Shown piece by piece: positions 3,001 through 6,000 of a stretch of DNA of 8,563 bases. The stretch comes from a virus (taxonomy: Duplodnaviria; Heunggongvirae; Uroviricota; Caudoviricetes): positions 1 to 8,563 of the IMG/VR virus record IMGVR_UViG_2529292904_000011; one strand, written 5' to 3'. Positions within the stretch are counted from its first letter, which is position 1. Each line of letters begins with the position of its first letter. A program made the position numbers.

Positions 3001-6000
3001 ATATCGTGGCTGCCGGTTATTACGGGGCGGCATCCCGGACATCGGCCAACTGGACGTCAGCAGACCGTGCGAGCCATTTCAGTGCCTGGGCACGGCGTGG
3101 GATTATTGCAGACAGAATGGCCTCGGCTATCCTGTCGCAGGCAGGGCGCTCACAGGCATTTATTGCCGGTGTAAAACCGGAGAACACACCATCAGCAGGT
3201 GGCTCTACGTCGCCGGATGACTCATCCCTGGAATCGATATCGCTTCTGGCCTCCGCCGGCGATGTTGCTTCTCAGGGGTGGAGTATTACCGGGGGCAGCG
3301 TTCAGTTATCGGATGGCGTACTGAGAATTGTCAAAGAGAGCGGTAAAAGCTGGATACTATCGCATCCGGTGAAGAATGCATCCTCACTGCTGAGCCGGGG
3401 AGGGAAGCTGACCTGTAAGTTCCGTCTGACTGGTGCTCTGACAAACAACCAGTTTGGACTGGGGCTTTATCTGTACACAGACGCTCCTGTTCCTGATGGT
3501 GTGACGATAACGGGGACTGGTGATCCGTTCCTGATGTCGTACTTTACGCAGACCACCGACGGCAAACTGAATCTGATGCACCACAGGAAGTCAGGAAACA
3601 CGAAGCTGGGGGAATTCGGGAACTACAGTAACGACTGGCAGGCGCTGGAGCTGGTGTTCACCGCCGGCAGTGCCACGGTTACTCCGAAACTGAATGGAGT
3701 GGCTGGCCCGGCATTCCAGGTTATAAAAGACAGTCTGACACTGGGACTGAATGCGCTGACGCTGACGGATGTTACAAAAAATGCAGCGTATGGCGTTGAG
3801 ATAGAAAGTCTGGTGCTGGAGATAAATGCACCGGCAGCATAATAAAAAAAGCCAGCGACTGACCTGAAAGAAGACGCTGGCTAAAAGGCCTTATATGTTT
3901 GTAGAGACTTATTTTTCACAGACAGCAATGATGCCTGTCAATATATTATCAATATGCGGATTGTTTCAGTTACAGATGCTTTATTAAGGAAAAAACAGCC
4001 AGCACTGACTTTCGGTGGAGAGGTGCTGGCTCAAAAGGATAGATGTACTTCACATGTTGCTTCTATATGGCAGTACATTTTCTGACAGACAGTGACGGAT
4101 GTTGTCAAGATATTGTGTCATTTATAACCTGAATCAGGGGAGGCCGGAATGTTATCTGGCATTTTTAGCAGAGCCTGAATGCCATAATCACGGCTCCCGG
4201 CGTTGGCCGTCAGTGGGTGACACTGGCGGCTTTTTTGTTTTTCTTTACTTTCATTTTCTGTCGGCGGTGACGGAGACATACATCAGATGGAAAAAATCAC
4301 AACAGGTGTGTCATACACCACGTCAGCGGTGGGGACGGGATACTGGTTACTGCAGCTGCTGGACAAAGTCTCTCCGTCCCAGTGGGTGGCAATAGGTGTG
4401 CTGGGAAGTCTGCTGTTTGGCCTGCTGACGTATCTGACAAATCTTTATTTCAAGATTAAAGAAGATAAGCGTAAGGCTGCGAGAGGTGAATAATGTCGCC
4501 GTCATTACGCAAGGCTGTTGCAGCTGCTATTGGTGGTGGGGCTGTTGCCATAGCGTCTGTGCTCATCACTGGTCCAGGTGGTAACGATGGTCTGGAAGGT
4601 GTCAGCTACATACCATACAAAGATATCGTTGGCGTATGGACTGTATGTCACGGACACACCGGAAAAGACATCATGCCCGGTAAAACGTATACCGAAGCAG
4701 AATGCAAAGCCCTCCTGAATAAAGACCTTGCCACGGTCGCCAGACAAATTAACCCGTACATCAAAGTCGATATACCGGAAACAACGCGCGGCGCTCTTTA
4801 CTCGTTCGTTTACAACGTGGCGCTGGCAATTTCAGAACATCGACGCTTCTTCGCAAAAGTAAACCAGGGCGATATCAAAGGCGCATGTGATCAGCTACGG
4901 CGCTGGACATACGCTGGCGGTAAGCAATGGAAAGGGCTGATGACTCGCCGCGAGATTGAGCGTGAAGTCTGTTTGTGGGGGCAACAATGAGCAGGGTAAC
5001 CGTTATTATCTCCGCTCTGGTTATCTGCATTATCGCCTGCCTGTCATGGGCTGTTAATCATTACCGCGATAACGCCATTACCTACAAAGCGCAACGCGAT
5101 AAAAAAGCCAGTGAGCTGAAGCTGGCGAACGTGACAATTACTGATATGCAGGTACGCCAGCGTGATGTCGCTGCACTTGATGCCAGATACTCGAGGGAAT
5201 TAGCCGATGCGAGAGCTGAAAATGAAACTCTGCGTGCTGATGTTGCCGCTGGTCGTAAGCGCCTGCGCATCAACGCCAACTGTCCAGGCTCCTTGCGTAA
5301 AGCCCCCATCACCTCCGGCGTGGGTAATGCAACCGGTCCCCGACTGGCAGAAGCCGCTGAACGGGATTATTTCATCCTCAGAGAACGGCTGATGGCAATG
5401 CAGAAGCAACTGGAAGGAGCACAGGAATATATCCGTACCCAGTGTATACCGTGATGTTTTGTTATGAAGGTGTTACTGGTAACATTAAGGTAATTTAACA
5501 AAGAGTCAGTTCCGGACTTTATAGTGTGCTCAGTTCATGGCCAAAAACGATTTCTGTGATAAATATTTTGAATATTATTTACAGGTAAATGGAGTGGGGC
5601 GCATGGATAGAAATATTACAATAGAGTATGAAGTATATGCCCGTATTGTATGGGCAGAGAAGGCAAAAACACGGTAATTCCGTGTGTTGCCATGATACCT
5701 GATTGGCAGAATAGTTGTTTGGTTTTGAGTATATAGTCAGCGTTTTTTGTTCAGTAATTGCCCCCTCAAAAAATAATAAAATAAGGTGATTATTTTTGTT
5801 TATTATTTAGTTTTTTTTGTGTGTTATTTTATTGTTTTTGCGTGGTTTGTTTTTTATTGTTATTTCATTAAGGGAAGGTAAATTCAGGATGGCAGTCTGT
5901 AGATAATCGGAGGTCACTTATGCTACATGATCACCTGGCAGAATGTCTGGAGAAAAAAGGACTGTACCGGAGAGCAGCTGAACGATGGGCAAAAGTGATG

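Follow-up and report, generated by a model that had tools for sequence, protein, structure and literature searches.

PasA is an Hfq-dependent prophage small RNA (sRNA) of enteropathogenic Escherichia coli (EPEC) E2348/69, encoded in prophage PP2 and found by RNA interaction by ligation and sequencing (RIL-seq) combined with northern blotting (Pearl Mizrahi et al. 2021, PMC8550237). Its gene sits between a sialic acid esterase gene and the holin/lysozyme operon, and phage YYZ-2008 (NC_011356) has been named as a carrier (Zhu, Shabalina and Storz 2026, bioRxiv 10.64898/2026.05.13.724894). On the minus strand of NC_011601, PasA has a 5′ end at 743499, a major 3′ end at 743415 (85 nucleotides [nt]) and a minor 3′ end at 743264 (236 nt), and the gene directionality is given as '> < >' (PMC8550237 Table S6). 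Hfq dependence was seen on northern blots, and 41 RIL-seq interactions were recorded in E2348/69. Here, the region between the esterase gene (nanS-p) and the holin gene was analyzed in a stretch of 8,563 nt of tailed-phage DNA, referred to as the window (IMG/VR record IMGVR_UViG_2529292904_000011, positions 1 to 8,563). Very probably this region consists of two tandem homologous sRNA units on the minus strand, convergent with nanS-p and the late operon, of which unit 2 (3990–4140) is pasA and unit 1 (3843–3989) is a diverged duplicate.

Relatives of PasA have been described in other prophages. PasC, from E2348/69 prophage PP5, has the same promoter, and its terminator carries stem and flanks of the unit 1 type (GCCAGCG / CGCTGGC-UUUUUUU) directly after the esterase stop codon; PasC loci contain one unit (intergenic region of ∼292 nt) as opposed to two (∼445 nt), and the PasC loop differs (UCCUUCAGAGUGGG). 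In O157 Sakai, EcOnc51 and EcOnc52 were reported as peaks in Hfq cross-linking and analysis of cDNA (Hfq-CRAC), both flagged with Rho-independent terminators (Tree et al. 2014, PMC4104026). They have been listed together as PasA homologues, without a northern blot or separate names; EcOnc51 (prophage Sp12) lies on a PasA-type terminator and EcOnc52 (Sp4) on a unit 1-type unit, and here the two peaks are assigned to the two different tandem units. The window shares with OmrA/OmrB of E. coli and PrrF1/PrrF2 of Pseudomonas an arrangement of two neighboring homologous units that each carry a promoter-like block and a terminator, with conserved 3′ ends and diverged 5′ bodies. PrrH spans PrrF1 and PrrF2 as a read-through transcript, like the long PasA isoform, whereas independent transcription of unit 1 is only predicted. 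AgvB and AsxR (Rfam RF02702 and RF02703) resemble the units in being short, Hfq-bound sRNAs of lambdoid late regions, convergent with their neighbors, with conserved 3′ and variable 5′ parts, but share no sequence or covariance-model similarity with them and lie between a moron coding sequence and a downstream open reading frame (ORF), not between esterase and holin. The core of the system, namely, PasA, its two 3′ ends and the EcOnc51 and EcOnc52 peaks, is already known. What the present analysis adds is modest: pasA lies in a tandem duplication that also holds a likely unnamed paralog, and PasC appears to be a recombinant.

Unit 2 of the window is pasA

Alignment with the NC_011601 locus identified the window as nearly identical to E2348/69 PP2 across the intergenic region, and window positions 3998–4022 are an exact match to the PasA northern probe, GCCAGCACTGACTTTCGGTGGAGAG (PMC8550237 Table S6). 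Transferred to the window, the PasA 5′ end falls at 4073, the major 3′ end (743415) at 3990, which is the last U of UGUUUUUU, and the minor 3′ end (743264) at 3841, inside the esterase stop codon and 3 nt beyond the U7 tract of unit 1; both 3′ ends are coverage based and not from Term-seq. From Table S6 and the alignment, the pasA gene for the 84-nt major sRNA was placed at 3990–4073 (−), a segment identical to NC_011601 743415–743499 save for one A fewer in an A-run (one U fewer in the U-tract). The PasA terminator comprises a hairpin at 3998–4030 (−), identified by the probe match and a predicted fold of −16.3 kcal/mol, and the G-interrupted U-tract UGUUUUUU at 3990–3997 (−). The 5′ arm of this hairpin, GCCAGCACCU, is the published seed, such that the seed overlaps the terminator stem and the RNA ends in a stem-loop and poly-U. 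The published PasA fragment carrying the seed (5′-...AAGUACAUCUAUCCUUUGA GCCAGCACCU CUCCACCGAAAGUCAGUGCU...) is the minus strand of unit 2. Mapped in the same way from its minor end, the read-through isoform, 236 nt in E2348/69, occupies 3841–4073 (−) and runs through unit 1 to the second terminator.

A PasA target site seen by RIL-seq, CUG(A/G)UGCUGGA, is located within the last codons of nanS-p at 3810–3820 (+). The motif site in the window, CTGGTGCTGGA, is complementary to the PasA seed GCCAGCACC and was placed by aligning an entry of the RIL-seq target list (E2348C_0688, 743175–743305, site CUGAUGCUGGA).

The initial annotation had recognized the hairpins and stated that there was no minus-strand gene for them to terminate. 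This does not hold, as unit 2 is the pasA sRNA gene, with unit 1 as its tandem paralog, and the unit 2 hairpin both terminates a known sRNA with experimental support and forms its Hfq-binding 3′ end. Unit 2 and PasA of PP2 agree in sequence save one U, in strand, in position between esterase and holin, and in terminator, seed and both 3′ ends; nothing substantive separates them, and expression of unit 2 in the host of the window is predicted. The expression, size, two 3′ ends, Hfq dependence and targets of PasA come from published experiments on DNA near-identical to the window, as does the association of the unit 1 hairpin with Hfq. When window positions 3843–4286 were compared with Rfam, no match was obtained at the gathering threshold or at an E value of ≤1, AgvB, AsxR and STnc100 included, and thus no known RNA family accounts for the feature. 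Among the matches listed from a search of 5426 RefSeq E. coli genomes, none had a feature annotated under unit 1 or unit 2. A 43-amino-acid plus-strand ORF that overlaps pasA (3954–4085) was ruled out as a gene; a polymorphic A-run breaks its frame in most homologs, leaving 29-amino-acid variants.

Tandem duplication and predicted folding of the two units

Local alignment of 3843–3989 with 3990–4140 gave a score of 52, compared with 19.6 ± 3.5 for 500 dinucleotide-preserving shuffles (z = 9.1), none of which reached the observed value. The units are truly homologous tandem duplicates, in agreement with the duplication proposed in the initial annotation, whose numbering was off by about one base. 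Both follow the same order: A-tract, stem, loop, T(C)AAAAGG and ACAGACAG-N10-TGTCAA-(G/T)ATATT. The unit 1 hairpin at 3851–3881 has the stem GCCAGCG / CGCTGGC and that of unit 2 at 3998–4030 the stem GCCAGCAC / GTGCTGGC, each around a 17-nt loop. The pattern GCCAGY-N15-27-RCTGGC occurs twice in the window, compared with 0.03 occurrences expected by chance. A dispersed repeat of the repetitive extragenic palindromic or miniature inverted-repeat transposable element type was ruled out, as the pattern was found only at these two window sites and, elsewhere, only at the same syntenic position.

On the minus strand the hairpins were predicted to fold at approximately −16 kcal/mol (unit 1, −16.0, z = −4.4; unit 2, −16.3, z = −3.3), with stems of 8 to 9 bp followed by the U-tracts UUUUUUU (unit 1) and UGUUUUUU (unit 2). 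A U-tract follows neither stem on the plus strand, where UCAAAAGG and UAAAAGG are found instead, and the proposal that the hairpins are minus-strand intrinsic terminators is borne out by this one-sided arrangement. The unit 1 terminator consists of the hairpin at 3851–3881 (−), with RNA GCCAGCG-loop-CGCUGGC and a closing A-U pair (3882/3850), and the U7 tract at 3844–3850 (−), one base from the esterase stop codon; the minor PasA 3′ end maps to 3841. In addition to the fold, the unit 1 hairpin occurs as RNA2 in RIL-seq chimeras, and the GenBank record of phage 434 annotates the same three sites (the two hairpins and the terminator before the holin gene) as terminators on the −, − and + strands. 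A consensus scan for σ70 promoters and terminators missed the unit 2 terminator and found that of unit 1 only via an alternative small hairpin.

Homopolymer length was variable among homologs, from A6 to A8 in the templates of the U-tracts (3990–3995 and 3844–3850) and from 3 to 6 bases in a loop run (3868–3870). In the commonest unit 1 variant the U-tract is interrupted by a C (UCUUUUUUU). Such changes could tune the efficiency of termination.

Covariation in the stem

Covariation was assessed by direct counting of pairs in 22 distinct hairpin variants, a diversity too low for a covariance model to add anything. Standard pairs filled 94.4% of the cells, compared with 22 to 47% after partners had been displaced by one to three columns, and the observed covariation score exceeded those of all 500 shuffles. 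Changes on both sides were found at three of the nine stem pairs (C-G/U-A, G-C/A-U and C-G/U-A), which confirms the compensatory pairing first noticed between the two units. At pair 12-35, most variants have C-G, two have U-A and one has U-G. Pair 13-34 divides the variants into 13 with G-C, including unit 1, and 9 with A-U, including unit 2. At pair 14-33, 13 of the 22 variants form C-G, U-G or U-A, and the remaining 9 are unpaired. The unit 2 stem has an extra C-G pair relative to unit 1. Preserved pairing of this kind is what any functional terminator would show.

Promoter block of pasA and of unit 1

Read on the minus strand, the ACAGACAG...TGTCAA block becomes TTGACA-N10-CTGTCTGT, followed by CAGAAA in unit 2 or GAAAAA in unit 1. 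Both units therefore carry a perfect TTGACA −35, an 18-nt spacer ending in TGn (extended −10-like), a weak A-rich hexamer and a conserved A/T-rich upstream stretch. The putative pasA promoter region spans 4079–4135 (−), with the hexamer CAGAAA at 4084→4079, TGT at 4087→4085, the −35 at 4108→4103 and the A/T-rich stretch reaching to ∼4135. The promoter-like block of unit 1 spans 3912–3941 (−), with the −35 at 3941→3936, an 18-nt spacer ending in TGT at 3920→3918, and the hexamer GAAAAA at 3917→3912. The mapped 5′ ends of PasA (743499) and PasC (1290909) share alignment column 287, 6 nt past the hexamer. Across 47 distinct PasA/PasC-type units and 25 distinct unit 1 sequences from IMG/VR, the block is almost invariant and the transcribed bodies hold most of the substitutions. 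These features support the TTGACA-18 nt-CAGAAA block as the minus-strand promoter of pasA, an assignment that we infer from base sequence and the position of the mapped ends. The alternative −10 sequences GAAAAT and AAAAAT (19- to 20-nt spacers) match the consensus better and fit the mapped 5′ ends worse, and the −10 assignment stays uncertain.

The consensus scan reported weak promoter-like sites at 3919–3947 (+) and 3969–3940 (−); two such sites compare with 1.1 expected by chance, and they were not relied upon. The octamer CTGTCTGT (minus strand, 4085–4092 and 3918–3925) is identical in both units, and the 10 nt preceding it differ at 7 positions. An extended −10 would account for only the TG within it, and the remainder might be a site for a shared regulator.

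Unit 1 as a candidate separate sRNA

Unit 1 is complete, with promoter block, body, hairpin and U7 tract. By homology to PasA, which also supplies its 5′ end, it is predicted to encode an sRNA of ∼63 nt at 3844–3906 (−), an EcOnc52-type PasA paralog that also forms the 3′ part of the read-through PasA isoform. Its body is only ∼55% identical to that of PasA, and the stretch GUCUCUACAAACAUAUAAGGCC is specific to it. Two published data sets bear on its transcription. In EPEC, the RIL-seq entity pasA.E2348C_0688.IGR comprises fragments 743267–743294 (−), which resemble an sRNA in that they are always RNA2 in chimeras and have five partners including escD; these fragments are the unit 1 hairpin, and the RIL-seq authors folded the entity into PasA as a minor form. 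In O157 Sakai prophage Sp4, the native sequence is retained up to 24 nt upstream of the unit 1 −35 and is replaced by IS629 beyond that point, leaving no pasA at the locus. The EcOnc52 peak in Sp4 (1181998–1182075, minus strand, flagged with a terminator; PMC4104026) covers unit 1, corresponding to window 3830–3907, with an edge 1 nt away from the start that homology to PasA predicts. Unit 1 was found in 676 of the 5426 genomes at 2297 places, and the PasA-type unit in 690 genomes at 2787 places. Taken on this evidence, independent transcription of unit 1 as its own Hfq-bound sRNA of ∼63 nt has about an even chance or slightly better. The wider proposal, that unit 1 is an unnamed independent sRNA gene of this kind, a tandem paralog of pasA in a family that evolves by tandem duplication and unequal recombination with PasC included, is evenly balanced between being right and wrong.

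According to the published reading, unit 1 would be a decayed relic of duplication that acts as a fail-safe terminator for PasA read-through and has no promoter activity of its own. This is a serious possibility, rated at a little under an even chance. Table S6 gives a single 5′ end (743499) for two 3′ ends, the hexamer GAAAAA is weak, the body has diverged to ∼55% identity, and EcOnc52 lacks a northern blot. However, in 25 unit 1 sequences the promoter block TTGACA-N10-CTGTCTGT-GAAAAA and the A/T-rich stretch are almost invariant, the body varying, which would be unexpected of a dead promoter; the Sakai Sp4 unit 1, left without its partner by IS629, nonetheless carries an Hfq-CRAC peak; and unit 1 equals pasA in prevalence (676 and 690 of the 5426 genomes, respectively).

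If unit 1 is indeed a transcribed paralog, this would contradict the statement that tandem duplication is not the source of pasA copies, the closest pair being 22 kb apart (Zhu et al. 2026, bioRxiv 10.64898/2026.05.13.724894). Unit 1 was evidently not scored as a pasA copy in that BLAST-based survey.

Insertion sequence (IS) ends of the IS629/IS3 type (TGAACCGCCCCGG...) were repeatedly found in or near the units, in Sakai Sp4 (locus L288, 631–700) and at several IMG/VR loci. Insertions were located, among other places, within the PasA-type hairpin, within the body and the U-tract of unit 1, and 24 nt upstream of its −35. Such recurrence points to a hotspot for IS insertion, which may also explain the terminator-less PasA-3 variant of Zhu et al.

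Plus-strand alternatives and points against the assignment

It is very unlikely that the hairpins act mainly on the plus strand, in processing or stability of the nanS-p or late mRNA, with their resemblance to minus-strand terminators incidental. The plus-strand RNA does fold into the same stems (−15.5 and −20.8 kcal/mol), and plus-strand reads cross the intergenic region in EPEC, where they are listed as pasA.E2348C_0689.IGR(+). However, the A-tracts beside both stems make sense only as minus-strand U-tracts, minus-strand RNA 3′ ends map exactly at these A-tracts, and about half of the intergenic regions contain neither unit, such that the units are dispensable for expression of the late operon.

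The plus-strand promoter of the initial annotation (TTGTCA at 4102–4107 and TATAAC at 4123–4128), which would drive a short plus-strand RNA ending at the 4205–4231 terminator, is highly improbable: 4109–4286, including that strong terminator, is highly conserved, but the 15-bp spacer is outside the σ70 working range, the consensus scan did not report the site, the plus-strand region is not sRNA-like in EPEC RIL-seq (one interaction, as RNA1), and the same bases form the perfect minus-strand TTGACA whose spacing fits the PasA and PasC 5′ ends. Together, the 5′-end spacing and the conservation of the block support the minus-strand promoter and disfavor TTGTCA-15 bp-TATAAC.

Several points weigh against the assignment of two minus-strand sRNA units. 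Loops of intrinsic terminators are typically 3 to 8 nt, and those of the units, at 15 to 17 nt with a few internal pairs, are longer than in textbook terminators; the loop of the PasC-variant hairpin is 8 nt. The covariation amounts to two or three independent events only, among closely related sequences. Both hexamers, CAGAAA and GAAAAA, are weak, with three of six matches and no T at −7, and the σ70 consensus scan reported neither the pasA nor the unit 1 minus-strand promoter. The transcript evidence comes from E2348/69 (northern blotting and RIL-seq) and Sakai (Hfq-CRAC), not from this window or its host. Unit 1 is multi-copy in Sakai, where several prophages carry it, so the EcOnc52 peak may consist of multi-mapped reads of read-through PasA, and the edges of CRAC peaks are not transcript ends. 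The PasA 5′ end may also derive from cleavage of a longer transcript (Zhu et al. 2026).

Intergenic variants and the origin of PasC

A sample of 106 esterase-holin intergenic regions fell into three length classes: ∼445 nt, with unit 1 and a PasA-type unit; ∼292 to 301 nt, with one unit; and ∼161 nt, with no unit and the plus-strand terminator only. The two-unit arrangement was present in about half of the sample. Single units took two forms. The PasC type has the stem and flanks of unit 1 directly after the esterase stop codon, joined to a body and promoter of PasA type; the other has a PasA-like hairpin, GCCAGUAC / GUACUGGC, in that position. The PasC hairpin segment shared 81% identity with unit 1 and 69% with PasA, and the PasC body 92% identity with PasA and 54% with unit 1. 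At one locus, a PasC-type loop was joined to the body of unit 1. Mosaicism of this kind is consistent with unequal recombination between the tandem units, at either the GCTGGCT(C)AAAAGG or the A-tract sequence that they share. PasC accordingly looks like a one-unit recombinant with a unit 1-type hairpin and a PasA-type body, although the direction of the event is something we infer.

The promoter block was also sought in one genome per species, and true copies outside E. coli were found only in Escherichia albertii; matches in Eubacterium, Prevotella and Chryseobacterium were discarded as chance matches. The element is therefore restricted to Escherichia, and distant homologs that could deepen the covariation analysis are lacking.

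Genomic context

The window corresponds to the late region of a Stx1 / 434 / H-19B-type lambdoid prophage. Its intergenic region of 444 nt is 96 to 99% identical to those of phage 434, phage YYZ-2008, many Stx1a phages and H-19B (98.9% for YYZ-2008, NC_011356) and was found at ≥80% coverage in 670 of 5426 complete E. coli genomes. Upstream, nanS-p encodes a SASA-family sialate O-acetylesterase (2001–3842 [+]; Pfam SASA, DUF1737 and DUF6645), annotated in homologous records as a SASA family carbohydrate esterase. The reading frame is open from 1887, with a likely ATG at 2001 and the stop TAA at 3840–3842. Downstream lies the class II (P21-type) holin gene S at 4287–4493 (+), identified by Pfam Phage_holin_2_1 (112 bits), which starts the lysis cassette and is followed by lysozyme and Rz.

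Directly upstream of S is an intrinsic terminator at 4205–4241 (+), with an 11-bp stem and a fold of −22 kcal/mol, which is context and not part of a unit. It was kept in all three intergenic classes, including the 161-nt class with no sRNA unit, and presumably shields the lysis genes from transcription lacking Q modification. The Q antiterminator gene itself lies at 553–1077, followed by a cluster of three tRNA-like genes (1135–1368 [+]), two of which were called by ARAGORN (Asn-GTT and Gly-TCC); the third, at 1215–1287, comes from Rfam only, with no ARAGORN call.

Directly upstream of the esterase gene is a PasD / STnc100-like sRNA at 1708–1916 (+). Rfam STnc100 matched 1708–1885 with 34.2 bits, below the gathering score of 47; 1876–1899 matches the target of the PasD northern probe with one mismatch, and a terminator (GGCTGCGCATGGCGCGGCC and T7) lies at ∼1889–1916. 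Given this sRNA and its terminator, the esterase most likely starts at ATG 2001 and not at TTG 1887 of the ORF list. The resulting gene order of pasD, esterase, pasA and holin is that of E2348/69 PP2 and agrees with the synteny given by Zhu et al. 2026. A full-length match to the Hfq-binding RNA isrC (Rfam; 150 bits; E value, 2e−37) was found at 8212–8334 (+), downstream of the terminase small-subunit region.

Proposed mechanism and implications

In the proposed mechanism, pasA would be transcribed in the lysogen, convergent to nanS-p and the late operon. RNA polymerase would start ∼6 nt after the TTGACA, 18-nt TGn spacer and CAGAAA elements, transcribe 84 nt and stop at the 4030→3998 hairpin and UGUUUUUU. 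The hairpin and U-tract would serve as the Hfq-binding 3′ end, and the seed, partly within the 5′ arm of the stem (GCCAGCACCU), would pair with target mRNAs carrying CUG(A/G)UGCUGG. The G interruption of the U-tract probably lets a minority of polymerases through, and these would terminate 147 nt downstream at the unit 1 hairpin (3881→3851 and U7), at the nanS-p stop codon, yielding the longer PasA isoform and keeping antisense transcription out of nanS-p. A block of this kind had been suggested at the outset, and the 236-nt PasA form does end at the promoter-distal hairpin, at the stop codon of nanS-p. Unit 1, as a diverged duplicate of the whole unit that has kept the promoter layout and the terminator around a different RNA body, is probably transcribed independently as well. 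Any plus-strand transcript of nanS-p or the late genes that extends across the region would be complementary to both sRNAs over their full length.

In EPEC, PasA ranks among the best-connected sRNAs of the accessory genome, and type III secretion and bfp genes are among its targets. Rfam has no PasA family, and recognizing pasA in unannotated prophage DNA is useful for annotation. The tandem duplication at pasA explains the 236-nt isoform, why EcOnc52 is a separate peak and why PasC is a hybrid, and suggests that one more prophage sRNA, with its own set of targets, may be present in ∼12% of sequenced E. coli genomes.

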